A stretch of DNA of 64,000 nt from an uncultured virus (IMG/VR IMGVR_UViG_3300028588_000802) (lineage: Duplodnaviria > Heunggongvirae > Uroviricota > Caudoviricetes): the IMG/VR virus record IMGVR_UViG_3300028588_000802; one strand, given 5' to 3'. Below, one piece after another: positions 4,229-63,809 of this stretch; the first letter of the stretch is position 1; each line of letters starts with the position of its first letter. Under the pieces are notes generated by a model. It had not been told where the DNA came from and searched no databases. It was given only the letters and a program-made list of their open reading frames with translations. The position numbers and the translations under genes are program-made.

Positions 4229-4249
4229 CCTATACTTGTCAGGACAACT
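4229..4249 (+). promoter_or_regulatory. GCTAYAC-N5-AGGMCAACT upstream motif (representative copy)
   Basis: CCTATAC-TTGTC-AGGACAACT, 15 nt before ATG 4265; about 29 copies in the window. Confidence 0.75.
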
Positions 4250-4264
4250 CTCAAAGGTTAGAAC

Positions 4265-4966
4265 ATGTATTCGCAAGAAGCAGGAAAATTAATCACTGGC
4301 CGCACCCGCGGTACCGGTAAAGTCGTAGACGAATGGACCTTCAAGTCGCCGTTGACCAAGGGGCCGAAGATGGACGTGCAAATCTCCATCGAAAAGTCCG
4401 ACGGCGATAGCATCACATTTGTCGCGCGCAGCCAAGCGCTCCCGGGTGCGTTGCGGGACCAGAACATCGAAACCCTTCGCTCCAAGGTCGAAGAGGCCCT
4501 GCGCACGCAGCACCAGCTGCTCACCGGGCTCGTATGGGAATCCTGGCTCGAAGTGCAGGTTCGAGGCGCTCGTGAAGCGCACAGTGTTCGAGCAGATGTC
4601 GAGTCGCGACTCGAGGTGAAGTACTGCTATCTCAAGCGGGCCGTTCACCCCGTGACTGGCGACGCGTACACCGTCAACCACAACGGCGTAGCAGTGCCGT
4701 TCCCGCTGCCGAAACTGGCGGGCGAAGCCGATACCCCCGAGGATGTCCAGGTCGGCGACATCAAAGGCGTGTGGCGCGGTCGGGAACCCGAAGCTGAATA
4801 CTCGTATGTTCCGGCGACCGATGAAAACGTTGCAGGCCTCGAAGACCTGATGGCAAGGATGCAGGCCCTTCGCGGCGCCTTGTCGAAGTTCCTTCGCCAG
4901 GACACAATCAACCAGTCCCTTGAGGGCCTGACGAATCCGTCAGCGGCGCTTCCGGCTCCGCTGTAA
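4265..4966 (+). CDS. hypothetical protein
   Basis: 233-aa ORF with upstream motif, RBS and downstream hairpin terminator. Confidence 0.7.
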   Translation: MYSQEAGKLITGRTRGTGKVVDEWTFKSPLTKGPKMDVQISIEKSDGDSITFVARSQALPGALRDQNIETLRSKVEEALRTQHQLLTGLVWESWLEVQVRGAREAHSVRADVESRLEVKYCYLKRAVHPVTGDAYTVNHNGVAVPFPLPKLAGEADTPEDVQVGDIKGVWRGREPEAEYSYVPATDENVAGLEDLMARMQALRGALSKFLRQDTINQSLEGLTNPSAALPAPL

Positions 4967-5102
4967 CAAGTCAAATCGTTCCCGAAACGCGCCTCTTGGC
5001 GCGTTTTCTTTTTCCGGCTCACCCACCGCGGCACGCCCGGCTGAAAACGAATAATTTTCATGGCTATATCGAGTATCACTCTTTTTCAATGGAAGCATAC
5101 TC

Positions 5103-5927
5103 ATGGTCTGGAAATTCAACACCGAAGCGGCAGAGAAGCAGCATGCCGAGCGCGCCTCGCGCATCGAGCCCGGTGCCGCTGATACCAATACGCCGGCGCC
5201 TGTTGCGCGCCCAACTGTGCATTACCACGCCCCGGTAGCAGCCCCTGGAGGCCGCGCCGAGCCGGTGCTGGTCGAAAACGCGGAGCTTGACGCCCACATG
5301 CGCAATATCGGCGCTGGAGGGCAAGGACGGCACGTTGAGCCAGGCTGGGGCGAGCCGGCGCAAGAGCCCGAGGCTTCCGCGCCTACCTCCGTCTTTGGTC
5401 AAGCAGAGCCTGGCCTTGGCTACGCGCATGTCGACGTCGACAACTTCCCTCAAACCGACTCGGCCTGGGATGTGCAGCCGTTCCAAGGTACGCCGGACGA
5501 GCTCCCGGACCTGCGCCCGATTCCGCCGGCCCCCGAGGAGCATCCTGGCCACCTCTACCGCAATTCGAGCACGTTCGGCCATGCGCTTCGCATGCCACAC
5601 GACGACCCGCGCCAGCAGCTCTGGACGGACCAGCGGCGCGACCGCGGCTTCGACGACACCGAGCTCTGGGGGCTGGACGACACTTTCGCTCGCTTCATTC
5701 TTCCACGCCTGAAGGCGCTGCGACAGCAAAAGCTGGAGGCGCCAAACAGCAAGATGGACTTGGCTCTCTGGTACAGCTTCCTGGACAAGATGATTCGTGC
5801 TTTCGAGCTTCTGCTTCCTGAAGGCGGCGGCGCCTGGTCGCGGGGCACCCTCAACGACCGGGAACGTGCCCAGCTCCAGGAAGGGCTGGACCTGTTCCGC
5901 CAGTACTACTTCTCGCTGTGCTCGTAA
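5103..5927 (+). CDS. hypothetical protein (phage-like C-terminal region)
   Basis: 274-aa ORF; low-complexity N-terminus, ordered C-terminus RGFDDTELWGLDDTFARFILPRL. Confidence 0.6.
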   Translation: MVWKFNTEAAEKQHAERASRIEPGAADTNTPAPVARPTVHYHAPVAAPGGRAEPVLVENAELDAHMRNIGAGGQGRHVEPGWGEPAQEPEASAPTSVFGQAEPGLGYAHVDVDNFPQTDSAWDVQPFQGTPDELPDLRPIPPAPEEHPGHLYRNSSTFGHALRMPHDDPRQQLWTDQRRDRGFDDTELWGLDDTFARFILPRLKALRQQKLEAPNSKMDLALWYSFLDKMIRAFELLLPEGGGAWSRGTLNDRERAQLQEGLDLFRQYYFSLCS

Positions 5928-5987
5928 GCCTCGTTCGGCCGCGTTACCGATAAGCTGGCTTCGGCCAGCTTTTTGTTTGCACCACTG

Positions 5988-6008
5988 CCTACACTGAGCA
6001 GGACAACT
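5988..6008 (+). promoter_or_regulatory. GCTAYAC-N5-AGGMCAACT motif
   Basis: CCTACAC-TGAGC-AGGACAACT before ATG 6023. Confidence 0.75.
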
Positions 6009-6022
6009 TAAAAGGATTTTTC

Positions 6023-6457
6023 ATGAACAGTAAAATGGTCGAGGCGGCACTGGCTGCACTGCGGGACCCCGAGTTCGGCAAGTCTTTCCTCGCAGAGCGC
6101 GAGGCTCGCATCGCACGTCAGAAGGCTTTCGCGGAATCGGACGTCTTCCTGCGTATGGTGGCGGCCATGAGGGACAATCCGGTCTACGTCAGCGTCAGCT
6201 CCGAGCATGCGCTGTACTTCCCCGATGAGGTACGGGCGAGCGCCGGCTGGGACTTCGCGACAAAGGAAGACGTCGAGCAGTTCTTCAACGTGATTTCCGA
6301 TTACAACGCTCCTACAGTGGCGCTGGAGTCTCACGACGAGGACGACGACTGTCCCTTCGAAAACCGACAGTTCGAGAACCACGGCCTGGCCGTGAGTATT
6401 ATGTACGGGCAGGGAACGGCAATCAGCGTAAGTAATCTGGCTCCAGTGCCGGATTAA
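6023..6457 (+). CDS. hypothetical protein
   Basis: 144-aa ORF with AAGGA RBS and upstream motif. Confidence 0.7.
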   Translation: MNSKMVEAALAALRDPEFGKSFLAEREARIARQKAFAESDVFLRMVAAMRDNPVYVSVSSEHALYFPDEVRASAGWDFATKEDVEQFFNVISDYNAPTVALESHDEDDDCPFENRQFENHGLAVSIMYGQGTAISVSNLAPVPD

Positions 6458-6514
6458 CTTTGCTTAAATTTTCAGCCCCGGCGCATTGAGCAGCCGGGGC
6501 TTTTCTTTTGGGCT

Positions 6515-6865
6515 TTAGCCCTTCGCAGCTTTCACTGCGTTTCGCTTTGCACGCCACGCGATAAGCGCCAGGTTGACCAGGGAGAACAGGGTGCCGGGCG
6601 TGAACTCCGCGGCGGCGACAAGCGTCATGCTGTCGTACCAACGCTTCAGCGTACGCGGCCACTTTCGGCCGTCGGGCCCGATGTAGATGACGGTGACCGG
6701 GAACTCATCTTTTTTTGCTTCGTCGGGAGAGCTCGTCACGTCCAGGACCGTGTACAGCGTGCCCCCCTTATGTCGCCAAACGGAGCCGGGCTCTGGCAGC
6801 GCTGCCGGGTCGATTGTGCGGGATATATCAGTTTTTTCGAGGGTTGGTGTGCTCGGCTGCATCAT
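6515..6865 (-). CDS. DUF1653-like protein
   Basis: PGSVWRHKGGTLYTVL...VIY...GRKWPR pattern. Confidence 0.5.
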   Translation of the reverse strand: MMQPSTPTLEKTDISRTIDPAALPEPGSVWRHKGGTLYTVLDVTSSPDEAKKDEFPVTVIYIGPDGRKWPRTLKRWYDSMTLVAAAEFTPGTLFSLVNLALIAWRAKRNAVKAAKG

Positions 6866-7090
6866 GGGGAGAGGGGCGAAAGCTAAGTGAATAATCCAAG
6901 GTGTAGCGACCTGCTACAAACCCTTTTCAGCCTTTCGTTAGAAAGCACAAATGCTTAAAAGCCAATTTCTGAGCTTTTTAAGAAAAATACGCTTAAAAGG
7001 TATAATTTTTGTGATTACACTACTGTAGCTAGTTGCATAATCTTTCCAGTATGCTGTAGCATTCTTTACCTCACCTTTTAAGGATACTTC

Positions 7091-8111: not shown

Positions 8112-8483
8112 TTACGAGGGGGACGACAGAAATTCCGGTACAAAAACGCGACCGCTTTTGAACTGGGCGAACGGGGCAGCGTGCCGCGGGCGCTGGTCCA
8201 ATGCGTCGACAAAGTTCGCGTACTTGTAGGGGTCATATGTCACGTGGCGAGTGCACGCAACAGTGGTCGCTTGCGGGTGACGCATGTAGCCCACCACTCC
8301 CGCGTGGACGTTCTTGCGGCGTTCCCGAATTACTCGTTGCCGGCCGGCTTCCGAGACCTTGAACACGCAGTCTTCAAGGAAGAGGCTATCGGTATGGAGA
8401 ATGACGCGGCCCTTCGCTGGCCCTTCTAGCGCCTTGACAGACCATACCCGCTTGTGAAGGTTGAAGTACACGTAAACTTTCAT
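8112..8483 (-). CDS. phage-type conserved hypothetical protein
   Basis: MKVYVYFNLHKRVWSVKALEG...GRQRVIRERRKNVHAGV; resembles phage hypotheticals. Confidence 0.65.
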   Translation of the reverse strand: MKVYVYFNLHKRVWSVKALEGPAKGRVILHTDSLFLEDCVFKVSEAGRQRVIRERRKNVHAGVVGYMRHPQATTVACTRHVTYDPYKYANFVDALDQRPRHAAPFAQFKSGRVFVPEFLSSPS

Positions 8484-8613
8484 GTGTTGCCCAATGGTCA
8501 GCAGGGTAGGGCGGCGCCAAAAACCCTGAAATTTGGTAAAGATTTACCGGATTTGGTAGATTAGTATAGCGATGGCTGGTACAATGACGGCAACACCCAG
8601 CTATGGCCTTTTT

Positions 8614-9420
8614 ATGAACCCTGACACTTCTTCCCCTAACCGACTGCTGCTTCAGTTCGACGGCTACAACATCGTTCGCCGCGTGTACGGCGCCGTACCG
8701 GGAGATGATTCTCCTGAGAAGGTTGAGGGGGCTTTTCGTTCCTCGCTGGGCTCGTTTAAGAACGCACTGAAAGACTTTCAACCGACGCACGTCCTGGCGG
8801 CCTTTGACCACGGCGGCCCGACGTTCCGAAATGAGCTCTACGACCGCTATCGCGAGGGGCGCAAGCCGATGCCTGAGGTTCTTCGGCAAGCGATGCCACA
8901 GTTCTTCGAGTCCCTTCGCGCTCTCGGCATCCCCGTTATCTGCATCGAGGGGGTCGAAGCTGACGATGTCTTGGCGACAGCTGGCTTGCGTTGGGTCCGC
9001 ACAGGCAAAGGGCGAGTCGTCACTGTCAGCACTGACAAGGACCTTGCACAGATGGTCCCGGACGGTGTCGAAATCCGAAACCAGTTCGAGAAGTCGTGGC
9101 TCGACGAAGCGTGGGCACAGAAGAAATTCGGTATTTCGCTCACCAAGCTGGGCGACTTCCTGGCACTGATGGGCGACGACGTCGACGGCATCCCGGGAAT
9201 TCCCAAAGTCGGAGTCAAGACGGCGGCAACCTTGCTGGCCGAATACGGCGACCTCGAGGGCGTTCTGGCCAACATGGACAACATCAAAGGCAAGCTCGGG
9301 GAGCGCGTTCGCGAGCATTGTGAAAATGTTCGAATCTCCCGCAAACTCGTGACACTCAAGACGGACGTCGTGTTGAACATGAGCTGGAACCAAATGGCAT
9401 ATCCGGCATTGGCCGCGTAA
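8614..9420 (+). CDS. 5'-3' exonuclease / flap endonuclease (PolA N-terminal-like)
   Basis: AAFD...FRNELY..YREGR, EADDVL, STDKDL, LMGDDVDGIPGIPKVGVKTA helix-hairpin-helix; start could be 8572. Confidence 0.9.
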   Translation: MNPDTSSPNRLLLQFDGYNIVRRVYGAVPGDDSPEKVEGAFRSSLGSFKNALKDFQPTHVLAAFDHGGPTFRNELYDRYREGRKPMPEVLRQAMPQFFESLRALGIPVICIEGVEADDVLATAGLRWVRTGKGRVVTVSTDKDLAQMVPDGVEIRNQFEKSWLDEAWAQKKFGISLTKLGDFLALMGDDVDGIPGIPKVGVKTAATLLAEYGDLEGVLANMDNIKGKLGERVREHCENVRISRKLVTLKTDVVLNMSWNQMAYPALAA

Positions 9421-10431: not shown

Positions 10432-10455
10432 GAACCGAACTTTTAAGGAGTGGTC

Positions 10456-11514
10456 ATGGGTCATTCGGATAGCCAAGGCGCAGAGCAAATCGCGCTGGCA
10501 CCAGAGGCAGAACTGGCGATGAAGCGCGCTCAACTGGGCATCGCGGCCGTAGACTGGAATCGGAGCCTGGCGGCGCCGCTTATCGCAGTTGGCCATGAGA
10601 TAGCGGTGGCTGAGAAAATTGCAGCCTTGGCAAAAGCCATCTCCGAGGCAGAGGTTCCAAAGTCGCCGGACGGGAACTATCACACCGGGGACGAGGACCT
10701 CGACCTCTTGCTCGGGCTCACGGAGGATATGGCAGAGGGGCGCGGCAACATGGATGTTGGCATGCTGTGGGTATCCGTGCTCGAGCGGGTCATGCGGAAG
10801 CTGAAGGATGCGTCTGCGAAAGAGCCAAGGAACTCGGTAGACCGCTTCCTGACCGACCACCTGCGGCTCTGGAAGGACTTGGGCGTACCGGCCCCGGTAA
10901 ATGAACTGCAGTCGATTCAGGCATGGCTGCGCCACTTGGGTGAACACGGCCCAGAAAAGACCAAGCACGCGATGCGCGGTCGAATGACCCTCTTGACGAA
11001 GGCGTCAATCGAACTGCACAAGGCGGGACCGGAGGCGGAGGATGCCGCCGGCATTTACAACGAGCGGTCGAGGGCCGAAATGGCGGCGGCCGCTCAGTCG
11101 AAGACTCCGAAGAAGCCATGCTTTTATGTCGCCAGTCGGGCAAGCGAGCCGGCACGGGCTGAGATGTGGGTTCGCCTGCGAGACGTCGACGGTTATCGCA
11201 TCAACTCGACATGGATTGACGCGGTAGTGAACCAGACTCCCGTCGCGTACGAGGAACTGTGGCCGCGCATCTGCGAAGAGGTCTCACGCTGCGATTGCCT
11301 GGTGCTTTATGTCCAGCCTGAGGATTTCCCGCTGCGAGGCGCTTTCGTCGAGGTTGGAATGGCCCTGGCGGCCGGCAAACCGGTGCGGGTCGTGGCGCCG
11401 GGTGTTCCACTTGCAGCCGAGGACTTCAAGCCTTTGGGCTCCTGGGCGAAGCATCCGCTGGTGCACATTGTGTCTTCGGTGGAGCGGGCTTTTGCAAGCC
11501 TCGACCCAGCGTAA
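10456..11514 (+). CDS. protein with C-terminal NDT-like (Rossmannoid) domain
   Basis: C-terminus FYVASR...STWID...CDCLVLY...GAFVEVGMALAAGKPV. Confidence 0.6.
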   Translation: MGHSDSQGAEQIALAPEAELAMKRAQLGIAAVDWNRSLAAPLIAVGHEIAVAEKIAALAKAISEAEVPKSPDGNYHTGDEDLDLLLGLTEDMAEGRGNMDVGMLWVSVLERVMRKLKDASAKEPRNSVDRFLTDHLRLWKDLGVPAPVNELQSIQAWLRHLGEHGPEKTKHAMRGRMTLLTKASIELHKAGPEAEDAAGIYNERSRAEMAAAAQSKTPKKPCFYVASRASEPARAEMWVRLRDVDGYRINSTWIDAVVNQTPVAYEELWPRICEEVSRCDCLVLYVQPEDFPLRGAFVEVGMALAAGKPVRVVAPGVPLAAEDFKPLGSWAKHPLVHIVSSVERAFASLDPA

Positions 11515-11561: not shown

Positions 11562-11942
11562 CTACGAGCGCGCTTTATCTTTTGCGGCCTTAGCTTTCGC
11601 GTTTGCTGCCGCCAACTTCGCGGCTTTGTCCGCGAAGAGCTGTTTCCATCTTGCGATTTCCGTCTCGTCGGTCAACACGTCCAACTCATTCCAGGGATAG
11701 GTGAACGAGCGGCGATGCGACGATTTGCGTCCATAGGGATGAAATTCGACGATAGGGTCATTCGTAAAGGACACATGCCCCACGACTTCACCGGCGCGCT
11801 CGCGCATCTTGTTTGCCTCGGGCGTGAAGAAGGCGCCCAACTCGGTTTCTTTCACTTTCACAAGGCACCCTTTCGGGAAAGCCTCGAGTTTTTCTTCGGG
11901 GGTCATTCGGAACGTTCGGGCGTCCTTCGAGTGCGTGCTCAT
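11562..11942 (-). CDS. hypothetical protein
   Basis: ORF with AGGAG RBS; motif GCTACAC-TGCGC-AGGCCAATT at 11959-11979. Confidence 0.65.
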   Translation of the reverse strand: MSTHSKDARTFRMTPEEKLEAFPKGCLVKVKETELGAFFTPEANKMRERAGEVVGHVSFTNDPIVEFHPYGRKSSHRRSFTYPWNELDVLTDETEIARWKQLFADKAAKLAAANAKAKAAKDKARS

Positions 11943-12112
11943 TACGATGCTCCTGGTTAATTGGCCTGCGCAGTGTAGCAAATTGTCTTTCGGCCAGCTA
12001 ATACCGAAGAGTGCTTAATCACTTCCGAATCACGGAGGGAGCGACATTTGCCTACTATATTGTGCATTTCTGCTATAATAAAAAGAACACATAGACTTTA
12101 TAAAGGAATCAA

Positions 12113-13076: not shown

Positions 13077-14108
13077 CTATCCGCGAGCGATTTTCTTCAC
13101 CGAGGGAGGGGATGGCGTCAGTATCAGGCCGGCCCGGTCGTAATTGACTTTGGCTTCCGGGTAGAGAACCAGGACGTCCTTCAGCGAACGCTTGAACCCC
13201 TCAATGAACTTGTGCTTCGCCGCCTCGGAGCCGAACTGCTGCATGAGTGCTTCCCAAGGCACTTTGGTTTCCCGAGTGATGCACGCATTGCGATATGAAA
13301 GCCAGCAATAGATGTCGATGGCCAAGGCTGAACTTGCCAAGCTCTTCACAATCCGCATATCGACCGGTACCGGGTTTTGCAGGATGTTCTCGTAGAACCG
13401 CTCTGACAGGACGACTTCCGATTGCCAGAACGATTGTTGGCCGGGGTGCGCTGGGTCCCAGAATGAGTCGAGGGACGATTCATCGGTAATACGAAAACCG
13501 GCATTCTTCCAGTTGGCGGCATTTGGGTCGGTCGTGATGGCAATTTGAGCGGCGAACAATCGTTGCATCTGGTTTTTCAGGAGCGTGATGGTACCCCGTT
13601 CGCCGCCCGTTACCCCGTGTTTACCGAGACCGGCCATGAATTGCACTAGGGAGTCTCCTAGCACGATAGTCCGTGAGGCCTTTTCGCTGTTCCGGTTCTT
13701 GACGACCTCGGTAGCAAGCCATGCCAAGATTAGCCGAGGGTATGCTCCGTAGGGGTAGCCGTAGCACATCAGCTCGTCCTTCATCGTCGGCTTGCCTCGA
13801 GCGTTGAGGACTTCTACACGTCGTTGGTAATAGCCTGGCTGAATCAGCATGCTTACGTTGCCACTAGTACGACCCCATGCGGCCGGAGGAGGATTTCCTT
13901 TCGGCTCGCGATAGGGCAGTGTCGCGTGAACGAGCCATCGAGCTACAAAGCTCAAATTGCCACTGCTGAGGGCATCTTCTTGCTCAAGCGCCAGTGCCTC
14001 TTGGGCGAGTTTTGCGAACTTCCGTTCTTTGGCTGCCAGCTGCTTGTTGGCATAGCTGTCCGGGTCCTTCGCCACAAGTTCCAGATGTGTCGGTTTCTTC
14101 GTCGTCAC
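13077..14108 (-). CDS. repA: plasmid replication initiator (RepA_C family)
   Basis: LVHATLPY, GYPYGAYPRLILAWLATE, PVPVDMR...SALAIDIYCWLSYR; adjacent iteron array. Confidence 0.9.
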   Translation of the reverse strand: MTTKKPTHLELVAKDPDSYANKQLAAKERKFAKLAQEALALEQEDALSSGNLSFVARWLVHATLPYREPKGNPPPAAWGRTSGNVSMLIQPGYYQRRVEVLNARGKPTMKDELMCYGYPYGAYPRLILAWLATEVVKNRNSEKASRTIVLGDSLVQFMAGLGKHGVTGGERGTITLLKNQMQRLFAAQIAITTDPNAANWKNAGFRITDESSLDSFWDPAHPGQQSFWQSEVVLSERFYENILQNPVPVDMRIVKSLASSALAIDIYCWLSYRNACITRETKVPWEALMQQFGSEAAKHKFIEGFKRSLKDVLVLYPEAKVNYDRAGLILTPSPPSVKKIARG

Positions 14109-15394: not shown

Positions 15395-15949
15395 TCAGGA
15401 CGGAAACTTGAGGTACTTCGCTGGCACCTCGGGAACCAGCCACACGCCATTGTCGGAGACCCGGAACTCAAAGCCGTCTCGCACCATTGGGTACGTTTCG
15501 ACGACGAGGACGATAGGCTGACCACGGCGAAGCGCTACGTTCGTGGCCGTCTCTTTGTCCGGCGAAAGATGGACGTCATGACGGCTCATCGGTTTCAAGC
15601 CGTGCTTACGGATTGCGGCGGCAAATTTCCCAACCGTGCCGTGGTACAGGACTGGAGGCGGTGCCTTGACTGTAAGCTTCAGGTCGACCTCGAGGCTGTG
15701 ACCTTGAGCGGCCCGGATGCGTGCTTCATCATCGCTGAGCAAAAAACGTTTCTTGTCGTTCTGTGCGACGACCTGCTTGAGTTCTTCGAGCGAGAAGGCT
15801 GTGCCCGCGGCGGTGGACTTGGCCAACAACTCGGGGACCGCTGCCCACCCTTGCTTGTCCAGCACCAGGTCGATGGAATCTGGTCGATGCCGAAGCACAT
15901 AGCTTAAAAACTTGCTGATACGCGTTGCGTTTTCTGGGGTGATATTCAT
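15395..15949 (-). CDS. kptA: NAD-dependent RNA 2'-phosphotransferase (Tpt1/KptA)
   Basis: SKFLSYVLRH, DKKRF, IRAAQGHS, LYHGT, RHDVHLS, NGVWL motifs. Confidence 0.95.
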   Translation of the reverse strand: MNITPENATRISKFLSYVLRHRPDSIDLVLDKQGWAAVPELLAKSTAAGTAFSLEELKQVVAQNDKKRFLLSDDEARIRAAQGHSLEVDLKLTVKAPPPVLYHGTVGKFAAAIRKHGLKPMSRHDVHLSPDKETATNVALRRGQPIVLVVETYPMVRDGFEFRVSDNGVWLVPEVPAKYLKFPS

Positions 15950-16010
15950 ACTGGTATTCCTATTTTTCTTGTGATTTTGACGTCATCCCAACTACGGCAG
16001 GGGTGGCTGG

Positions 16011-16637
16011 TTATTCGGTCTGATACGCTCCGGCCCAGGCGGGAATGTCCGCTACCAAATATGTTTTGCAGTTGCCGTTCAGGAGGCGCAACACCGCGGC
16101 CTTGCGGGCAGAGACTGAGTCCTTCAAGCCGATGGCGTCGAGTTCGCCAAGTGTGAGCGTTGAGCCGGAAGGGATGAAGTGCTGGTCAAATGCGAAGCCG
16201 GCACCGCGTGCGTCGCCAACCATCGTTCCACGTACCTGGGCCTCTGCCACGTAGAGGACCCCTGCGTGGTGGACAGCGAGCATCACACGCCAAATTGCCA
16301 TCGGACGAGCGCTTGAGCCCTTCAGGTCCTGTTTGAGCTTGTCGAGCATCCAGCGAATATTTACGCCCGCGGAGAACCCCTCGACGTCGAGCGAGGTGTC
16401 TTCGACAAGGACATTCTCGCCGGCCGCCAGTGCTTTGTACATAACGACCTCTTCTGGCGTTCCATCGACTTCCGGAAGGTCCTCTCCAAGCTCAGCCTGG
16501 ACCTGCAGGCCGAAACGCCGGACTTCGGCTAGCTTCTTCTCGTTCGACGTTTTGAGGACGAATGGAATGCTCTTAAGCGTTGAAGCAATCGCAGGGCTGG
16601 AGATGCCGAGCGGTTTGGGCATGGTCTGTGTGGTCAT
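16011..16637 (-). CDS. Ham1/ITPase-like non-canonical NTP pyrophosphatase
   Basis: TSNEKKLAE, DLPEV, VEDTSL, GFAFD..F, SARK motifs. Confidence 0.8.
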   Translation of the reverse strand: MTTQTMPKPLGISSPAIASTLKSIPFVLKTSNEKKLAEVRRFGLQVQAELGEDLPEVDGTPEEVVMYKALAAGENVLVEDTSLDVEGFSAGVNIRWMLDKLKQDLKGSSARPMAIWRVMLAVHHAGVLYVAEAQVRGTMVGDARGAGFAFDQHFIPSGSTLTLGELDAIGLKDSVSARKAAVLRLLNGNCKTYLVADIPAWAGAYQTE

Positions 16638-16647
16638 CGTGCCTCCC

Positions 16648-17310
16648 TTAAACCGGTTTCGTGCGCAGCAGGAGTTCTTCGCGGTTGCGCAGCTGGTAAA
16701 GCTGCGCCGGCCGGCCACCGCTGGTACGGAACTCCCCTGGCAGCTCTTCGAGGATGTCGAACTCGTTCAGCCAACGGCGGAACCCGCGCTTATCGTGGGA
16801 TTCACCCATCACTATCTGGTACGTGTCCTGGACCTGCGGAAGCGTGAATTTTTCCGGTAGCAAGTAGAAGGGCAGGGTCGAGTAACTCGACTTGTCCCGC
16901 AGACGCTTGAGGGCAAAATCCAGGATTCTGTTGTGGTCGAAGGCCAGCTGCGGCACCTCATCGACAGGGAGCAGGATAGAGGCTGCGGCTTTCCCGCCTT
17001 CGAACAAGTCCTCACGCACCAATGCGTAATGCGCCACGCTAAACGACCAGCCGCGCGGGTCGCGGTCCGGACCCGCAAAGGTGTAGAGCTGCTCGAGGTA
17101 GGGCGTCTTGATAAGCGTCTTCGACTCAAGCGTCCGGCGCGCCGCCTCGAGGCTACCTTTGTCTTCATCAACGTGCACGTATCCGCCAGGCAGCGCCAGC
17201 AGACTCTTAAAAGGGTCCTTGTCGCGCTTGACCAGTAGGACATGCAGCCGCTTCAGGATAAGCGTGAACATCACGATGTCGACGGTGGCGATGGGTTGTG
17301 CGTGTGGCAT
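16648..17310 (-). CDS. nrtR: NrtR-family Nudix/wHTH transcriptional regulator
   Basis: VLLVKR...ALPGG, YLEQLYTF..PDRDPRG, LAFDH, FTL..Q..Y, GGRPAQLY; Nudix box lacks the catalytic Glu residues. Confidence 0.85.
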   Translation of the reverse strand: MPHAQPIATVDIVMFTLILKRLHVLLVKRDKDPFKSLLALPGGYVHVDEDKGSLEAARRTLESKTLIKTPYLEQLYTFAGPDRDPRGWSFSVAHYALVREDLFEGGKAAASILLPVDEVPQLAFDHNRILDFALKRLRDKSSYSTLPFYLLPEKFTLPQVQDTYQIVMGESHDKRGFRRWLNEFDILEELPGEFRTSGGRPAQLYQLRNREELLLRTKPV

Positions 17311-17373
17311 ATGGGTGTCCAGTTGGAGCCCAGTGGGACTCGAGGCTATGTTGCTAACTATAGTGATGGCGGG

Positions 17374-17393
17374 TTAGTGCATTTTAACACTAA
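17374..17393. promoter_or_regulatory. palindromic operator (candidate NrtR site)
   Basis: TTAGTG-CATTTTAA-CACTAA. Confidence 0.6.
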
Positions 17394-17539
17394 GGGGGCA
17401 CTTTCTCAATCGAAGCCGATAGTAGAGCAGGGGCCCTCCACCAATTTTTAACTACAATTTAGGCTGAAATTTTAGGGCCGGCCGCAAATTTTTCTCGAAA
17501 CGTATAAAAGATTTCAGCGAGGTGACTACACTCTTAAAA

Positions 17540-17565
17540 TACTTAGTGCAAAAACGCACTAAGTA
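17540..17565. promoter_or_regulatory. palindromic operator (candidate NrtR site)
   Basis: TACTTAGTGC-AAAAAC-GCACTAAGTA; same TTAGTG-N8-CACTAA core. Confidence 0.65.
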
Positions 17566-17616
17566 GTCTATAATGACTTTACGCTGAACAACACACCCCT
17601 GCTAAGGAGCCTGACC

Positions 17617-18471
17617 ATGAACATGAAGAAGAAAATCCACCTGCTGGCAATCGACCCACAAAACGACTTCTGCGACATCCCGAAGGAAGCCCAGCCGCAC
17701 AATCCGATGGCCCTCGGCGAGCGTATTGCCCCAGCCCTGCCGGTTCCTGGCGCGCACGACGACATGATGCGCCTGTCGGCTCTGATTGACCGCCTGGGCT
17801 CGAAGCTGTACGACATCCACGTCACCATGGACTCGCACAACCCGCTGGACATCGCGCACCCGAGCTGGTGGCGCAACGACAAGGGCGCCGCGCCGGCGCC
17901 GTTCACCCAAATCACTGCGGCCGACGTGCGTGCCGGCGTGTGGCGTGCTCGCAATCCGGGCGCACAAGCCCACAGCCTGGCCTACGTCGAATCGCTGGAA
18001 GCCAATGCCCGCTACACCCTCATCATCTGGCCAGAGCACTGCCTCATCGGTCAGTGGGGCCACAACGTCCACGCGGCCGTCGCCAACTCGCTGAACAACT
18101 GGGCCCGCGAGCGCCAGGAAGTGGTGAACTACGTGACCAAGGGCTCGAACGCCATGACCGAGCACTACTCGGCTGTCCAGGCTGAAGTGCCGGTGCCGAA
18201 CGACCCGTCGACCATGCTGAACAGCCGCCTCATCACCACCCTGGGCGATGCCGACATCATCCTCATCGCCGGCGAAGCGCTGTCGCACTGCGTTGCAAGC
18301 ACGGTGCGTGACATTGCCGACAACTTCGGCGAAGAAAACATCAAGAAGCTGGTCCTGCTGACCGACTGCACCAGCTCGGTGGCCGGTTTCGAAGCCCTGG
18401 GCGAGAAGTTCGTCGCCGACATGACCGCCCGCGGCATGCAGACCGCAAAATCGACCGAATTCCTGGCCTAA
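17617..18471 (+). CDS. nicotinamidase-like cysteine hydrolase (isochorismatase family)
   Basis: IDPQNDFC, D.H...H, WPEHC, K..N..TEHYS, AGEALSHCV. Confidence 0.85.
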   Translation: MNMKKKIHLLAIDPQNDFCDIPKEAQPHNPMALGERIAPALPVPGAHDDMMRLSALIDRLGSKLYDIHVTMDSHNPLDIAHPSWWRNDKGAAPAPFTQITAADVRAGVWRARNPGAQAHSLAYVESLEANARYTLIIWPEHCLIGQWGHNVHAAVANSLNNWARERQEVVNYVTKGSNAMTEHYSAVQAEVPVPNDPSTMLNSRLITTLGDADIILIAGEALSHCVASTVRDIADNFGEENIKKLVLLTDCTSSVAGFEALGEKFVADMTARGMQTAKSTEFLA

Positions 18472-18534
18472 GGCGCCGGCCGGCTCCTGTTCGCAGGAGC
18501 CGCTTTCCGCAAACAGACAAAACAAGGACTACCT

Positions 18535-44615: not shown

Positions 44616-44618
44616 CGC

Positions 44619-46275: not shown

Positions 46276-46294
46276 GAATTACAAAGGACACACC

Positions 46295-49028: not shown

Positions 49029-49421
49029 GATGTCCTCGGGTTGTTAAAAATGTCCTGCTACTCGTGTAGCGAACGCGCCAGAAAGCGAAAAGCCCGGCGC
49101 GAGGCCAGGCTTAAGTGTTGGTGCCGGGTTTATTTTCCTTCTGCCGGCTCCAGAAGAGTTACGCTTTTCACGAACAGTGGAGACAGCCAACATCGCTGCA
49201 AGTGCCTCTGCAGTTTCTTAGTCAGTTACTTTGTTGCCAAAGGGTTGCTAATCAACGAATGCGAGCATTGTACACTCACAGTTCTCGTAAAGCAACGATT
49301 TTCTCACTGGAAGTGCTTTATAGTGCACTACTAGACTAGATTGCCACAGTTTTTGCTTGAGACTATCTCATTTTTCAGTGGCCGAAAAAATCCCCTGCGG
49401 CGTGAGCGGCAGGGGAGGGAA

Positions 49422-50045
49422 TCACGTAGGAGTGGTCGGCGTTGACGTGTGCCAGAAGATGGTGCGCAGCAGTTCACGCTCAGCATCGGCCAACAAATTC
49501 GACTTGGACAACTTATCGTACAACTCCAGCTTCGCCGGCTGTTCCAGTGGGGCAGCCAGTGCGGCGGCCATTGGTTCCGCAGTTGGTTCTTCAACCGGCG
49601 CCAGCAAGAACGGGAAGGTGTTCTGGAGCAGCAGCGCCAGTTCACGCTCACAGTTGTCTTTCAGCGTTGGGGAAGATGCGATGGCCTTTGCCAAGTGCGT
49701 GCGCATGAAGCTGAGGATTTCGCTCTTTGCCGGGTCAAAGCTGTCCTTCTTTTGGATACCGGCGAGGAGCCGGCGGTAGAGGGGAACCACGACCATCAGT
49801 TCACGTTGCGCCACGCGGCGGGCCTCGACCGCCTCATAGTGCTGGGTGAGTTTGTCCAGCTTCAGCCTCAGCTTCGGTGTCCCGTAGCGCGGCTCGCCAT
49901 TCGCCAGGTTGGTGAAGATGAGCTGATTGCTCGCATGGTAAATTTCTCGACGTTGGCGAATGATGCCTTCGAAGAGAGCGAACAGTGCGGGAACGAATTC
50001 TCGCGGTGCGCGAGAGGTGGAAACAACTGGTTGCTGTACCGTCAT
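49422..50045 (-). CDS. hypothetical protein
   Basis: motif variant at 50061-50081. Confidence 0.6.
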   Translation of the reverse strand: MTVQQPVVSTSRAPREFVPALFALFEGIIRQRREIYHASNQLIFTNLANGEPRYGTPKLRLKLDKLTQHYEAVEARRVAQRELMVVVPLYRRLLAGIQKKDSFDPAKSEILSFMRTHLAKAIASSPTLKDNCERELALLLQNTFPFLLAPVEEPTAEPMAAALAAPLEQPAKLELYDKLSKSNLLADAERELLRTIFWHTSTPTTPT

Positions 50046-50158
50046 GGGTTTCTTTCAAAGAGTTGGCCTATGTAATGTAGGTACTCAAGTGATTATTCGT
50101 TTTGTATCATTCAATATAGCAGGTATAATACGCGTTTCTCGAACTGCGGATTTCCCCA

Positions 50159-50425: not shown

Positions 50426-50465
50426 CCTAGTTTCTACACTGGTCAGGACAACTATCTCGGAGTAA

Positions 50466-50918
50466 ATGATGAATGAGAAACTGGTAACGACTCTGCTGTT
50501 CTCGGAGGACTTCAGCGATGTGCTTATCGCTCGCGTTGCGGCCGACGAAGGGAAGTCGGTAATCGGGTTCCCGCAGAATGTGGCGCCTGCAGGAGAAGTT
50601 ACGTACTGCAGTTTGCCGTGTTTAGCGGCAACGCGGGCGATTAAGGCGGCAGTTGGTTTGGAAATTCCGCTGCAAGATTGGTTCCTCGCCAAGCACACAC
50701 CAGGGCGTGTCGACGAATGGGCGGTTTACGCTACGGTGCCGCGCGAGGTGCTCTTCCGAGCCGCGTCGAATGTCGATGGCGTCGTTTACGTGCTTCCTGT
50801 CAGTGCGGTTCTCACTGATGCATGGGCAGACCCGAGCAAGTACAGTCCGGCCTTCCTCGTCCTCCTGGCGGCAGCGCGTACCAAAGCAGCCGAACGCAAA
50901 AAGTCATTCGAGTACTAA
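50466..50918 (+). CDS. hypothetical protein (possibly degenerate Nudix fold)
   Basis: motif at 50433-50453; GE....AATRAIKAAVGL resembles a decayed Nudix box. Confidence 0.55.
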   Translation: MMNEKLVTTLLFSEDFSDVLIARVAADEGKSVIGFPQNVAPAGEVTYCSLPCLAATRAIKAAVGLEIPLQDWFLAKHTPGRVDEWAVYATVPREVLFRAASNVDGVVYVLPVSAVLTDAWADPSKYSPAFLVLLAAARTKAAERKKSFEY

Positions 50919-54927: not shown

Positions 54928-55017
54928 GCGAGAACAGGAAACGATTTGTGATTCCGGATATTGTGGGCGCCAATAGGAGCTATACGAGGTAGGCCCACTC
55001 TTATTTTAGGACTTCTC

Positions 55018-56064
55018 ATGCTCAAAAAACTCCCACTCGAAAACCTGAACAACGCCTTCGACAAGCAGTTCCTGGCGATGCGCTATCTGCTCCTCGGCCT
55101 CCTCGAGGACAAACCACAGTACGTACGAGCACTCCATTCGCTGGAAGCAGCTACGCCGTACGTCGAAGCTTTCAACGCTAACGGCTGGGTGGACACCTAT
55201 TACCAGGCGGCACTCGTCTCGGCCTTCGACCTGTACAGCAATAGCGACGCTGCCGTCGACCTGACAGACGACCTTGTCCGGCTGCTGACGCCGAATTTCA
55301 GTCAGTTCCCAGTGGTGCAAGTCGACCCGGCGGCAGACGAAGACGAGGGCGACAGCATGATGCCCCAGTTGGTCGGCCTGCCGGCGATGGTCAGCGGTAA
55401 CTTCGACAAGCTGTTCGTGTCGATGCAGTTCTACCTGCTCGGGCTTGCCCGCCATGACCCGTCTTACCTGGTGGCCTACGACGCATTGATGTACACGTCG
55501 AAAATCCACACGGGCTTCCGCAAGAACGGCAAGACGCCGGAGTTCCAGCACCAGCTCGAGATTGCGCACTTGATGCGCACCCTCAAGCGTTACATGATGT
55601 ACCCAGCTGAAACGCTTGCGGCGATTTTCCTCCATGACACGCCGGAGGATTACGACGTCGAACGTGCCGAGCTGGAAAAGCGTTTCGGCCCTCGTGTGGC
55701 GCATTCGGCGATGTTGCTGAACAAGTACGATGAGCAAGGCAACGCGAAGCCGCTGGACGAGTACTACTCGGCGCTGGCGTATGACCCAATCGCCTCGATT
55801 GCAAAGCCTGGGGATAATGCGCATAACCAGTCGACGATGCCAGGTGTGTTTGGGTTCAAGAAGCAGCACGATTACACCCAGAACATCCGCATGCGTAGCT
55901 GGAGCATGATGAAGGTTGCGCGCCGGCTGCACCCGCTGCAGGAGCCGATTTACCAGAACCTGGGCTTCATTCTGCGCACGCAGTACAACGGCGTTCAGGC
56001 AATGCTCGATGCACTGAAGTTCGACCCAGACACGGGCCGAATCCACCCTGCGCTCGAAGCGTAA
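55018..56064 (+). CDS. HD-domain hydrolase (SpoT/Mesh1-like)
   Basis: H.GFRKNG.TPEFQHQLEIA, AAIFLHDTPED, K..DN.HN; motif at 54979-54999. Confidence 0.75.
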   Translation: MLKKLPLENLNNAFDKQFLAMRYLLLGLLEDKPQYVRALHSLEAATPYVEAFNANGWVDTYYQAALVSAFDLYSNSDAAVDLTDDLVRLLTPNFSQFPVVQVDPAADEDEGDSMMPQLVGLPAMVSGNFDKLFVSMQFYLLGLARHDPSYLVAYDALMYTSKIHTGFRKNGKTPEFQHQLEIAHLMRTLKRYMMYPAETLAAIFLHDTPEDYDVERAELEKRFGPRVAHSAMLLNKYDEQGNAKPLDEYYSALAYDPIASIAKPGDNAHNQSTMPGVFGFKKQHDYTQNIRMRSWSMMKVARRLHPLQEPIYQNLGFILRTQYNGVQAMLDALKFDPDTGRIHPALEA

Positions 56065-56100: not shown

Positions 56101-56203
56101 CTGGAGCGGCCTAAGGGGTTAGACTAGGCTATAGTGGGTCAAAGGGTGCGGGGGGGCGGCGTCCGGCCGCTCGCTACACCAGAGAGGACAACTACCAAGG
56201 ACT

Positions 56204-56659
56204 ATGATGTCGAAGCAACAGAACCCACGACAGAAGCAAGAACAAATCGATGCATTGGCGGCAAAGCTTGCTGCCGCGGAGCCCGAAGTCATGCCGACGG
56301 GTGTGCCGTTCTACGCGTCGTTCGATGAATACGTGCAGGACCATCCGGACGGCGAGAAGTATCGCGCCTGGCTCACCAACAACAATCGTAATGCGGTTTC
56401 GCTGGTCCTGATGCGAGGCGCCGCAACCCACAATTCACTTCCAGGTGGCTACCTGGCCATTACCTTGAAGGAGTACACGCCGTCAGGCTGCAAGTCATAC
56501 CTGCTGCTCTCGCTGCGAGACAATGACGACGGCTTGGCCATTTCGACCTGGCCGGCCGAAGAGCGCGCCGCAGCGGAATCTGTCGTTGCGAACATGAAGT
56601 TGCTGGCACCTTTCAGCATGCGCGAAGCGGTGGAGGTATTCGGCCTGCGCTTCGACTAA
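56204..56659 (+). CDS. hypothetical protein
   Basis: motif at 56173-56193 and AAGGA RBS. Confidence 0.65.
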   Translation: MMSKQQNPRQKQEQIDALAAKLAAAEPEVMPTGVPFYASFDEYVQDHPDGEKYRAWLTNNNRNAVSLVLMRGAATHNSLPGGYLAITLKEYTPSGCKSYLLLSLRDNDDGLAISTWPAEERAAAESVVANMKLLAPFSMREAVEVFGLRFD

Positions 56660-61746: not shown

Positions 61747-62700
61747 ATGCGCCATCCCCTTCCTACGCAACACCAAGAAGTCTATGCCGCGTTTATTTCA
61801 AAAATCGTGGACGATGCCGCTAACCGGGAATTTACTCGTAGCTTGGTCGGGCGCCATGTAGTTACAATGCTTATGGAGCAACGGGCGGAGATGGCGAAGG
61901 CTCAAACTGAGGGAGAGCCTATTGATACGTTCAAGTACGTCGGCTCCTTCATTCTTGCACTTCACGACTACGTCAAATGGATGTCCGAAAAAGGCGAGGA
62001 GTTCCGCGCCAAGCTTGACGAAGAGTTCGCACGCCTTACCGAAGTCTGGGAGAACAAGGCTCGCCACTCCTGGATGACGGACCATGGCAGATTCCGATTG
62101 CAGAGGGCACTGGACTTGCAGCCGATGACCCGGCAACATTCCGCGCTGTTCCCGTTACGTACACGGGCGATGACGGCAACGCTAATTGCGGCTTACGACG
62201 CGCTTGCAACCGCATCGCCGGCGGAGAACTGGAAAATTGCGTTGGAGGCCTTTTTCGGCGCGTACAAGAACTACCGGTTCGACTTCGTTGCCCTCACAAA
62301 AACGGCAGGGCCGGCTTTCATCGCGCAGAATGGTCTCGTAACCGAGATGGTCCAGGACATTGATGAGCGTATCGCAGCTATCGAGCGAAAAGCCAGAGCG
62401 CAGGTAGCTGCGGAATTGGCGGCCGAGCGCGCCGCGGCGGAGGCTCAGGAAGACGAGGATGACACCGCGCAGGCGCCGCATTACGCAGGGGATTCGTACC
62501 CGGCAGGGCGCACGGCAGCTGTCCTGGATGAGCCGTTCGAGAGCTCCAACACTGCCTGGGAATTAGATTCGTCTTTCGAGTCCGTGGACAATAGCTATTG
62601 GACTTACGAGCAGGAGTACAACCCAGCGAACGGCCTGCCTATGGTCGGGGCGTATGATACCAACAACAATATGTACGGCACGAACTTCAACGATTTCTGA
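61747..62700 (+). CDS. hypothetical protein
   Basis: 317-aa ORF; acidic tail ending YNPANGLPMVGAYDTNNNMYG. Confidence 0.6.
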   Translation: MRHPLPTQHQEVYAAFISKIVDDAANREFTRSLVGRHVVTMLMEQRAEMAKAQTEGEPIDTFKYVGSFILALHDYVKWMSEKGEEFRAKLDEEFARLTEVWENKARHSWMTDHGRFRLQRALDLQPMTRQHSALFPLRTRAMTATLIAAYDALATASPAENWKIALEAFFGAYKNYRFDFVALTKTAGPAFIAQNGLVTEMVQDIDERIAAIERKARAQVAAELAAERAAAEAQEDEDDTAQAPHYAGDSYPAGRTAAVLDEPFESSNTAWELDSSFESVDNSYWTYEQEYNPANGLPMVGAYDTNNNMYGTNFNDF

Positions 62701-62839
62701 CCGCGGGGCCGCCGCCGGGGCTAGACCCTGGTTTGCGGCTCACGACGGCCGCCGCGCAATCGATACGTAAGCACTCCTCTCCGGAGAACTACTCCTGCAG
62801 AGCGAATTTGTTCCAGCTCCCTATACATGGTCTAGGCCA

Positions 62840-62985
62840 CAACAGCCTGCCGTCTGCGCCACCTCGGTGGTATGGCAAACGTTGGTTAAACCCCTCCCAA
62901 TTCGCAAACCCGCCTCGTAGGCACAAGGGTGAGCGGAGCAATGCAGACAGTTCCAAGGACATCATCATGACCATCGCCCTTGCGC
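62840..62985 (+). ncRNA. conserved structured leader RNA, copy D
   Basis: CAAC/GTTG stem, GCC/GGC, hairpin CCAC-CTCG-GTGG, long-range GTCTGC(62852-57)/GCAGAC(62943-48). Confidence 0.7.
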
Positions 62986-63002
62986 AAACAAGGAATAGAG
63001 AA

Positions 63003-63689
63003 ATGCACAACTCGCAACTGCAACTGAAGGACCTGTCGGAGAAGAACGCAAAGGCACTGGCAAGCTCGGTGACGAAGTTTTTGAAAGCTCATGGCATCGA
63101 GCTTCAACACACGAAGGCACTTGACCTGACTGGCACCCTCTGTGGATTCGGCAACTGGCAAGGCCTGCAGGCGGCCATCGTCAAGAAGGAAGAGGAGGAC
63201 GCGTCTAAGCCCATCATTATGAGCTACGACGAGTTCTTTGACACCTTCCGGCCTGTGAAAAACAAGCTGGACCCACATGCTCCGGCAGATGGGTATGGGT
63301 TTGAAACCTACGGCGCCGAGTGGGAAGCGGTTCAAGCTGCTCACGCTCGAGACCCCGGCACCGTCTGGACCGTCGTTGACGGCGAGGGCACTGCCTGGCT
63401 CTCCGAGGGGCTGCACTACGTGAACCGGGCGTTCTACTTCATCACCAGGAAGCCTGCGATTGCCGGCCGGGTCTACAACATCCCTTACGGGCATGAGGTA
63501 GGCGACCTGGCTTTTGAGATTTCGGTTATCAATCCGGACACGCAAGAGTCGGAAATTATCGACGTGCGCTATGGCGCTTCCGCTGAAGAGGTGCTGGCCG
63601 ATGCAAGTATCGACTACACCGAAGAAGTCGAAGGCGTTGTTGAAGAAGGCCAATCCCGAGTCATCATCGTAAAGCAGGTCGCACACTGA
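63003..63689 (+). CDS. Glyoxalase_8-like N-terminal domain protein, paralogue D
   Basis: AKALA...LKAHGIELQHTKALDL...GFGNWQGL; alternative in-frame ATG at 62967. Confidence 0.65.
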   Translation: MHNSQLQLKDLSEKNAKALASSVTKFLKAHGIELQHTKALDLTGTLCGFGNWQGLQAAIVKKEEEDASKPIIMSYDEFFDTFRPVKNKLDPHAPADGYGFETYGAEWEAVQAAHARDPGTVWTVVDGEGTAWLSEGLHYVNRAFYFITRKPAIAGRVYNIPYGHEVGDLAFEISVINPDTQESEIIDVRYGASAEEVLADASIDYTEEVEGVVEEGQSRVIIVKQVAH

Positions 63690-63699
63690 CCTTTCATTT

Positions 63700-63729
63700 G
63701 CCCTCAACTAACGTTGAGGGCTTTTTTTT
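63700..63729 (+). terminator. intrinsic terminator
   Basis: GCCCTCAAC-TAAC-GTTGAGGGC followed by T8. Confidence 0.85.
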
Positions 63730-63809
63730 GCCTTGCGGGCACCTTGGGAAGCCTTCACGGCGGCCGGTTCGCTATACCTCGTAGGACATCATCTTTTCGA
63801 GGTAAAACC

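Follow-up and report, generated by a model that had tools for sequence, protein, structure and literature searches.

The window analysed here, a stretch of 64,000 nucleotides from the uncultured-virus record IMGVR_UViG_3300028588_000802 (IMG/VR), encodes a RepA_C replication protein (13077-14108, minus strand), HU, a 5'-3' exonuclease, Tpt1, Ham1, NrtR, a kinase/PP2C pair, TrxB, two SprT-like proteins and a PAS-GGDEF-EAL protein, together with ~60 open reading frames (ORFs) that have no Pfam or informative PHROG family. In sequence records its proteins belong to a contig of up to 1,119,147 bases. About 27 of its small genes are headed by the same two-part motif, in which a box resembling a bacterial -10 element is followed, mostly after five bases, by a conserved AGG box. 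A first-pass annotation, made from the sequence alone, had listed ~29 copies of this motif in the form GCTAYAC-N5-AGGMCAACT and had taken them for a regulon with a reader of its own.

All 29 positions are found to carry a copy. A permissive pattern (NCTAYAY, a spacer of 4-8 bases, AGG[ACT]C) returns 28 sites in the window, every one of them among the 29, and the remaining copy, at 28546(+), reads GCTACAC-aaggc-AGACCCAAT, with three mismatches. The exact form GCTAYAC-N5-AGGMCAACT matches five times, against 0.00 in 100 dinucleotide-preserving shuffles, and with up to three mismatches it matches 30 times, against 0.91 +/- 1.01 in the shuffles; the related form CTAYAC-N5-AGGHCAAYT has 11 matches, against 0.00. 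A 17-base core, TNGCTACAC-N5-AGGACAACT, is present in five copies.

The consensus is T-N-G-C-T-A-Y-A-C, N5 (rarely N6-7), A-G-G-H-C-A-A-C-T, and alignment of the window sites with a five-base spacer yields T(-2) n G C T A Y A C n5 A G G M C A A Y T. To these we added sites from related metagenomic loci, described below, for a pooled set of 150 non-redundant sites, of which the window supplies 28 and relatives 122 (91 of the latter not being search seeds), with base counts taken over the 124 sites that have an N5 spacer. A conserved T two bases 5' of the G, absent from the first-pass annotation, is present in 21/24 window sites and 102/124 pooled sites. The spacer had been described as mostly 5 nt and 6-7 nt in four copies, and so it is: 25 window copies have N5, one has N6 (37783) and three have N7 (33576, 49048 and 62820), and no N4 or N8 spacer was found in the window, where both were permitted in the search. 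The pooled sites divide into 124 with N5, 11 with N6 and 15 with N7. In the downstream box A-G-G (invariant in the pattern) is followed by H (A90 T21 C13 G0), C, A105, A103, C86 and T91; the A, G, G and C are thus invariant and the A, A, C and T stand at 70-85%. The five spacer positions are unconstrained except for a pyrimidine before the A (C60, T32).

The copies are oriented with the downstream gene and lie shortly before its start, as had been claimed. A same-strand start codon of an ORF of >=40 residues follows 26 of the 28 pattern sites at 2-36 nt (median 15), and 143/150 pooled sites have a start codon within 40 nt. The distance from box to start codon is tight, mostly 12-19 nt, with a ribosome-binding site (RBS) in between. 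A stricter test, which called for a Shine-Dalgarno-like sequence and an ATG or GTG opening an ORF of >=60 residues 8-40 nt downstream, is passed by 23/28 window sites and 106/150 pooled sites, compared with 247/5000 random positions. At the other end, 22/25 motif-headed genes finish in a hairpin plus T-run within ~90 nt of the stop codon, compared with 21/300 random 95-nt windows, and a consensus scan of 25-45 kb places strong intrinsic terminators just past most small genes. Upstream, a run of four T bases is found within 40 nt at 42/148 sites, compared with 9% of random windows, and several upstream terminators end within 25 nt of the -10 box. Motif-headed genes are thus mostly single units, a typical one consisting of terminator, motif, RBS, ORF and terminator. 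Because several terminators come within 25 nt of the -10 box, transcription must begin inside the motif or directly past it, which leaves a -35 element no space. The layout as a whole confines the start to the 40-60 nt between upstream terminator and start codon, where the motif is the only conserved sequence.

On inspection, no full motif precedes repA, hup, trxB or nrtR, in agreement with the first-pass annotation. Moreover, hup and two orphans beside hup and repA (12113+ and 7539-8039-) carry textbook TATAAT or TGCTATAAT boxes, and the replicon therefore seems to hold two promoter classes, one of the motif type and one of the host type. Over 25-45 kb, canonical sigma-70 (-35/-10) sites are fewer than expected, one against 5.3 +/- 2.1 in shuffles.

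Five of the copies are exact and have an N5 spacer: 29674-29694(-), which heads an ORF ending at 29008 with its ATG 18 nt past the box; 30448-30468(-), before ORF 29781-30428 (215 residues; upstream terminator 30519-30496); 34099-34119(+), before ORF 34133-34489 (118 residues); 45059-45079(-), before ORF 44619-45044 (141 residues); and 56173-56193(+), before ORF 56204-56659 (151 residues). The other plus-strand N5 copies lie at 4229-4249 (ORF 4265-4966, 233 residues, an orphan), 5988-6008 (ORF 6023-6457, 144 residues; the T-run of an upstream terminator ends ~15 nt before the -10 box), 25097-25117 (ORF 25135-25512, 125 residues), 36803-36823 (box AGGCCCACT; ORF 36837-37730, an AAA_21 ATPase whose ortholog in related locus L089 retains an AGGCCC variant), 41419-41439 (ORF 41459-42061, 200 residues), 50433-50453 (ORF 50466-50918, 150 residues), 54979-54999 (box AGGCCCACT again; ORF 55018-56064, with an HD_4 domain) and 63771-63791 (box AGGACATCA; an ORF that starts at 63810 and runs off the window). 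Those on the minus strand lie at 11959-11979 (box AGGCCAATT; ORF 11562-11942, 126 residues), 26307-26327 (ORF 25599-26291, 230 residues), 27411-27431 (ORF 26769-27374, 201 residues, with the longest leader, 36 nt), 28510-28530 (ORF 28223-28504, 93 residues), 30796-30816 (box AGGTCAACC; ORF 30546-30782, 78 residues), 33447-33467 (ORF 32769-33434, GTG start, 221 residues), 39440-39460 (ORF 38833-39423, 196 residues; upstream terminator 39534-39513), 40194-40214 (ORF 39543-40175, 210 residues) and 42506-42526 (box AGGTCAATC; ORF 42185-42490, 101 residues). Two further minus-strand copies have variant upstream boxes, CCTATAT at 45577-45597 (downstream box AGGCCACTT; ORF 45130-45549, 139 residues) and CCTACAT at 50061-50081 (ORF 49422-50045, 207 residues).

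The N6 copy, 37783-37804(+), heads ORF 37820-38236 (138 residues; upstream terminator 37737-37758), and the N7 copy at 49048-49070(-) heads ORF 48765-49028 (87 residues). The other two N7 sites are doubtful: 33576-33598(+) has no adjacent start codon, the next gene, 33722-34018, being 124 nt off, and 62820-62842(+) lies within ORF 62733-63689, is followed by no start codon and is probably a chance match. The degenerate copy at 28546-28566(+) heads an ORF that ends at 28893 and likely starts at ATG 28588 after GAGGAGG. It stands back to back with the copy at 28510, and over 28510-28566 a distance of 15 bp separates the -10 boxes of the pair, across the imperfect palindrome GAGCACATTGGGCTC.

The two boxes also occur apart. 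A downstream box AGGCCAACT without an adjoining -10 box is found at 1255-1263(+), 20 nt before the RBS and ATG of ORF 1205-2326, with a GCTATAC box at 1084, 171 nt upstream. The arrangement is repeated at 2929-2937(+), before the paralogous ORF 2939-4159, where a variant of the motif lies upstream at 2756-2776. Conversely, a GCTACAC box without an AGG box is found at 6901-6907(-), intergenic and oriented with ORF 6515-6865, and other -10-like sites of this kind start at 1084+, 2713-, 8570-, 28079+, 35502-, 36750- and 46120+. In the closer group of loci the AGGHC box is present at 61/90 gene-preceding -10 boxes, an indication that the two modules are separable and that the -10 box is the more deeply conserved of the two.

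The upstream module resembles the -10 elements of known bacterial promoter classes in part. No upstream column exceeds 0.45 bit, which agrees with the earlier observation that a common -35 is lacking. A GC-rich GCCGGC had been said to lie upstream often; we see only a modest trend, with GC-rich palindromic hexamers within 35 nt upstream of 10/28 window sites and 29/148 pooled sites, compared with 15% of random windows, and the pooled figure led us to drop such palindromes as a substitute for the -35. The final base of the -10 box had been noted as often A, C or G, and it varies more than that suggests: T is present in 12/24 window sites, and the 124 N5 sites give A34 C36 G26 T28. T(-7) is near-invariant in sigma-70 and sigma-S promoters, and its randomness here indicates that the motif is not a canonical -10 box of either type. 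Nor is there a TG at -15/-14, for G(-14) is present in 91/124 sites but the preceding base is C53 G29 T29 A13, and the conserved T lies one position further 5'.

Sigma-S promoters come closest. Their extended -10 consensus is given in an excerpt of PMC3367168 as TCTATACTTAA, and C(-13)TAYAC equals it over -13 to -8 in all sites, in part by construction of the pattern. The -35 is dispensable in these promoters, another likeness to the motif. Unlike them, the motif has a random T(-7) (28/124), bases after the -10 box that are not A/T-rich, T(-16) in place of the -15/-14 TG, and an invariant box at the start site, and the composite occurs in reference genomes at chance level. Two other classes were set aside on inspection: sigma-54 (-24/-12, with GG and GC doublets ~10 bp apart and a start ~12 nt past the GC), since the second block is AGG rather than TGC, spacing and doublets do not fit and the leader would lose its RBS; and integron attC sites, for which the orientation would be wrong and the genes lie on both strands.

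The position of the downstream box fits a transcription start. Start sites of E. coli RNA polymerase fall within a window 6-10 bp past the -10 element, with a mode of 7, according to an excerpt of bioRxiv 10.1101/239426. With spacers of N5-7, the G and A bases of the box fall 7-10 bp past the -10 box, in line with that window. This suits a multisubunit polymerase whose -10 reader is of sigma type, with the box seated on the start site. A rigid single-subunit phage polymerase fits this geometry poorly.

The distribution of the motif separates it from ordinary chromosomal promoters. When one genome per species was searched for 185,579 species, the 17-base core turned up as 22 single matches in 22 unrelated records, with no second loose copy nearby. 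In 301 genomes from the order of a Burkholderiaceae metagenome-assembled genome (G001), CTAYAC-N5-AGGHCAAYT gives 8 single matches and its reversed control 14. Across 121 Pseudomonadota genomes, TNGCTAYAC-N5-AGG is found 0-8 times per genome, compared with 0-7 for the control. The comparison with chromosomes that the first-pass annotation had proposed thus shows the motif at chance level in reference genomes and dense in the window (11 in 64 kb). Viral contigs contain one single match.

In metagenomes, by contrast with reference genomes, a scan returned at least 92 loci. Matches lie on very large contigs, among them one of 1,463,929 bp with at least 9 loci; a single assembly accounts for several of 126-440 kb, and others measure 176-366 kb. 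Among the matches listed, to which all counts for relatives refer, 29 loci (444 kb) have at least two loose copies and together contribute the 122 non-redundant copies of the pooled set. The nucleotide identity of these relatives to the window is only ~70% and limited to a few genes, and they have few protein families in common with it; still, window and relatives agree in the motif, in its spacing and in how far it stands from the ATG. Their contigs are orphan-rich and carry type IVb pilus genes, KfrA, HU, TrxB, NrtR, CysRS, FtsH, GyrB/GyrA-like proteins, SecA and methyl-accepting chemotaxis proteins. More distant loci, with a GC content of 0.60-0.64 and contigs up to 667 kb, are similar in gene content and have 5-9 -10 boxes per 20 kb, compared with ~1 estimated by chance. 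Anchoring on the -10 box alone recovers the A-G-G-a-C-a-a-C-T profile in the closer loci; the profile is weaker in the distant high-GC loci. The best explanation of these sequence comparisons is that only one superfamily of replicons uses the motif, its members being giant (0.7 to >=1.46 Mb), rich in orphan genes and plasmid-like.

We therefore favour, with a probability of roughly one half, the view that the motif is a private two-module promoter of these replicons, read by the core polymerase of the host together with a putative element-specific factor. In this model the motif would be a compact, -35-less promoter that starts single-gene transcription units. The upstream module TNGCTAYAC would act as an extended -10 element and, lacking both T(-7) and the TG step, would probably not be read by ordinary host sigma-70 or sigma-S alone. 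AGGHCAACT would sit where the bacterial multisubunit polymerase starts and would fix the start site, which would give all motif mRNAs a common 5' end and a short leader of ~20-28 nt before the RBS. Recognition would require a specificity factor encoded by the element, presumably a divergent sigma-like or polymerase-modifying protein, and the host-type TATAAT promoters of hup and of the two orphans beside hup and repA would supply a first tier of expression.

The regulon proposed in the first-pass annotation is supported in its promoter-like placement and its restriction to one element family, its reader being putative. We searched Pfam with 105 window ORFs and ~510 ORFs of relatives (17 window ORFs being re-scanned at E up to 1) and PHROGs with 60 window orphans, and scanned window and relatives for the polymerase signature DxDGD. 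No gene for a sigma factor, an RNA polymerase or a clear dedicated regulator, and no convincing activator gene, was found in the window and ~0.5 Mb of relatives; this is a small part of replicons of more than 1 Mb, and the absence is accordingly weak. Several further points weigh against a private promoter. The two orphans behind canonical promoters near hup and repA are not sigma-like, as judged from low-confidence ESM Atlas models. C(-13)TAYAC is close enough to the sigma-S consensus in the excerpt of PMC3367168 that host RpoS is possible as the reader. Absence from the host chromosome rests on reference genomes rather than on the true host, and since the motif itself was the query that brought up the relatives, the seed copy at each locus is present by construction. 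Finally, contigs from a sequencing run only guessed to be RNA cross several motif sites unbroken; because the runs were compared as contigs, starts, ends and strand are not readable from them. In metatranscriptome data, six short contigs fall in four genes, three of which are directly headed by the motif and the fourth of which, 33722-34018, lies 124 nt past the N7 copy at 33576.

One protein with two or three tandem HTH_3-type (helix-turn-helix) domains is encoded in two distant members, at L078 409-1494 and L080 15337-16431 (E 2.5e-57), and L080 13813-14646 and L038 18253-18813 also belong to the set. A single-HTH neighbour of this protein is likewise conserved between distant family members. 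The two are candidate family-wide regulators; nothing ties the tandem-HTH protein to the motif, and its gene has no homolog in the window.

The strongest alternative, though in our judgement an unlikely one, is that the host reads the upstream module as a weak -10 of sigma-S or sigma-70 type and that AGGHCAACT is an asymmetric operator through which a global repressor encoded by the element silences hundreds of cargo genes. Models for such a repressor are KorA/KorB on IncP-1 plasmids and the L5 gp71 stoperators of mycobacteriophages. The motif shares with these networks its tens of copies of one site per replicon and, with stoperators in particular, its asymmetry and its orientation with transcription. 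A repressor would account for a box that is far more specific than any general preference of the polymerase and that overlaps the expected start; it would also account for the separability of the modules, since about one third of the 90 gene-preceding -10 boxes are without the box and the box occurs at 1255 and 2929 without a nearby -10. The tandem-HTH protein conserved in L078 and L080 could be of this kind, and the fit of C(-13)TAYAC to the sigma-S consensus, as excerpted in PMC3367168, speaks for reading by the host. However, with T(-7) random and neither a -35 nor a TG, a promoter read by the host only would be very weak. No repressor is tied to the site, the window offers no candidate for one, the tandem-HTH gene being without a homolog there, and the box, unlike a stoperator, is locked to the -10 (N5 in 83%): it lies 5-7 bp past the -10-like box and 12-20 nt before the start codon.

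A second alternative places the main action of the downstream box in RNA, as a shared 5' leader that serves translation (as a standby ribosome site), stability, binding of an element protein or non-canonical capping. It is compatible with a private promoter rather than exclusive of it, and as an account of the box in its own right we consider it doubtful. The tight distance of box to start codon would be needless for a pure DNA element. In the paralogous leaders of 1205-2326 and 2939-4159, the -10 box lies ~170 nt upstream and a perfect AGGCCAACT adjoins the RBS, and a consensus fold pairs AGGCCAACT with an upstream GUUGGCUU in a predicted 8-bp helix; the helix is drawn from two paralogs, however, with no covariation. 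The NAD-capping consensus HRRASWW (NAD, nicotinamide adenine dinucleotide) is fitted by AGGACAA and matched by 93/150 boxes, the box itself being far more specific, and the elements are rich in NAD and Nudix genes. Against this, the A(+1) required for capping would sit 8 bp rather than the modal 7 past the -10 and is C or T in 34/124 N5 sites; the A at position 12 and G at position 13 of the motif never vary, although both may precede the start; no RNA-binding protein was found; and phages and plasmids commonly carry NAD-salvage genes for unrelated reasons.

Recognition by a single-subunit (T7-like) or other non-canonical RNA polymerase encoded by the element would explain why a 23-bp motif placed gene by gene, much like the promoters of phages and linear plasmids, lacks a -35 and is private to its family. 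We regard such a polymerase as very improbable. T7-type promoters are contiguous and rigid, conserved from about -17 to +6 with an A/T-rich -4 to -1, and here no constraint is seen on the five bases that precede the start, and spacers of 5, 6 and 7 all occur. The ORFs of the window and of the scanned relatives, a small part of the replicons, show no RNA_pol, two-barrel or DxDGD signature. Lastly, that the motif is no promoter at all, but a recombination site, the end of a mobile element or another short repeat that precedes genes by chance in a cassette-like gene layout, is scarcely credible given its strict orientation with the gene and fixed distance to the RBS, its copies on both strands without inverted-repeat partners, its conservation between replicons with almost no common DNA, and the terminators on the other side of each gene.

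If the motif is indeed a private promoter, it has partial counterparts among known systems. Phage promoters that consist of a -10 element only are read by sigma-like proteins or a modified host polymerase, as in T4 late transcription with gp55, in phiEco32 and in Thermus phage P23-45. The motif is like these in its single upstream element near -10, its lack of a -35 and its role as a private expression class across the element; it differs in that its carrier is plasmid-like with RepA_C, a second block is conserved at the start, and no sigma-like gene was found. Promoter motifs repeated before gene after gene across an element are also known from mimivirus (AAAATTGA), from poxvirus early promoters and from the upstream conserved sequences (UCS) of yeast killer plasmids, all elements that encode their own RNA polymerase. 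Here too, one short motif stands before many mostly orphan genes with short leaders on a very large element, whereas an own RNA polymerase was not found and the -10-like half, RBS and terminators are bacterial.

The pMPPla107 family of Pseudomonas megaplasmids, ~1 Mb in size and orphan-rich according to an excerpt of PMC6482414, offers another comparison. Like the present replicons, pMPPla107 (NZ_CP031226) carries, by the same excerpt, HU, a type IVb pilus, a tRNA synthetase and other housekeeping paralogs. It also has a sigma-70-family gene (8438-9127 in locus L117, NZ_CP031226.1), 7 kb from parAB and beside HU and rdgC. This sigma factor has no homolog in the window or the loci (phmmer, nothing below E 0.01), the motif has 0 copies in the 971,889 bp of pMPPla107 at up to one mismatch, and genes of this megaplasmid are preceded by ordinary boxes of TATAnT type, whose distance varies. 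With neither motif nor sigma factor in common, pMPPla107 was rejected as a relative. The replication protein of the window is nearest to Ralstonia RepA, with 55.6% amino acid identity to that of Ralstonia insidiosa pRI-1 and 46% to the megaplasmid RepA of Ralstonia solanacearum; pRI-1 contains 0 copies of the motif.

Plasmids are generally thought to depend on host promoters and a few regulators. The replicons described here, of up to at least 1.46 Mb, appear to use one private and oddly built promoter for most of their genes of unknown function, and searches of reference genomes, of plasmid records and of phage records turned up no counterpart of the family. No description of the motif or of the replicon family was found in literature whose coverage left subscription journals outside. 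If the private promoter holds, the motif would be a sequence tag by which such elements can be found and binned in metagenomes, and it would unite hundreds of orphan genes in a regulon that could be turned on or off as a whole. It would also point to a new promoter-recognition factor, for which the 21-bp motif could serve as bait, and possibly to a shared mRNA 5' tag. One may go further and suppose, as a long shot, that in soil bacteria these megabase replicons maintain a separate transcription layer, in which the putative factor reads TNGCTAYAC, transcription of every cargo gene starts in AGGHCAACT, and the 5' end shared by hundreds of transcripts is a "self" tag used for selective translation, protection or NAD-type capping. 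Were this true, the layer would be the plasmid counterpart of the private expression systems of jumbo phages and giant viruses.

Several observations concern RNA and nucleotide metabolism in these elements. The leaders at 1060-1290 and 2730-2965 (~170 nt) contain the segments CCCAAC, GUUGGCUU and AGGCCAAC, of which the middle one can pair with either neighbour. Their consensus fold sequesters the box beside the RBS, and on this modelling the leaders may act as a leader switch; Rfam finds no family in the window, including the two leaders. Genes for NAD and nucleotide metabolism are dense, in the window at 537-1061, 10450-11514, 15395-17310 and 30825-31628 and in relatives L032, L039, L067, L069 and L090. 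The set comprises NrtR, several Nudix proteins, Tpt1/KptA, ADP-ribosylglycohydrolases and nucleoside 2-deoxyribosyltransferase-like, Ham1, NMNAT-like and CoaE-like proteins. It may serve NAD salvage or counter-defence, and a link to the motif is speculative.

The stretch itself occurs in leaf-litter metagenome runs, which may be its source, and relatives at ~90-95% identity were met in three other sequencing runs. Contigs of run X8 contain runs of 18-19 T that are absent from the window, at 26875 and 44288, each abutting a position inside a minus-strand gene, as if transcripts had been polyadenylated; relative L087 encodes a protein with a PolyA_pol head domain (5517-6632). Relatives in runs X4 and X8 are without window positions 42529-43308 (780 bases, with gene 42645-43295) and have 27 other letters instead, a gene-sized insertion or deletion difference between close relatives.

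The window and its relatives look like an undescribed family of giant plasmid-like replicons. No near-identical DNA was found among PLSDB plasmids, and phages gave one 144-bp match at chance level. The MYG1-like protein 23311-24543, considered as a plasmid marker, has only Variovorax chromid matches at 35-40%. About three quarters of the ORFs of window and relatives have no family, and the rest include the type IVb pilus genes and housekeeping-like paralogs (CysRS, FtsH, GyrB/GyrA-like, SecA, TrxB and HU). The ORFs 1205-2326, 2939-4159 and 46262-47203 belong to a multi-copy family, also found in L040, L049, L071, L078, L082 and L090, whose members have in common only an N-terminal module of ~50 residues. 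This module matches the start of Pfam Glyoxalase_8 (profile ~6-67 of 143), the C-terminal parts are unrelated, and there are three copies in the window and at least nine in relatives. A block of NrtR, two orphans, a PP2C phosphatase and a kinase-like protein of ~590 residues is found at 16648-21947 in the window and at 12782-18983 in L090 (a 440-kb contig), where alone an ADP-ribosylglycohydrolase flanks it. The pair of PP2C and kinase-like proteins recurs at 13611-16188 in L047, on a 410-kb contig.

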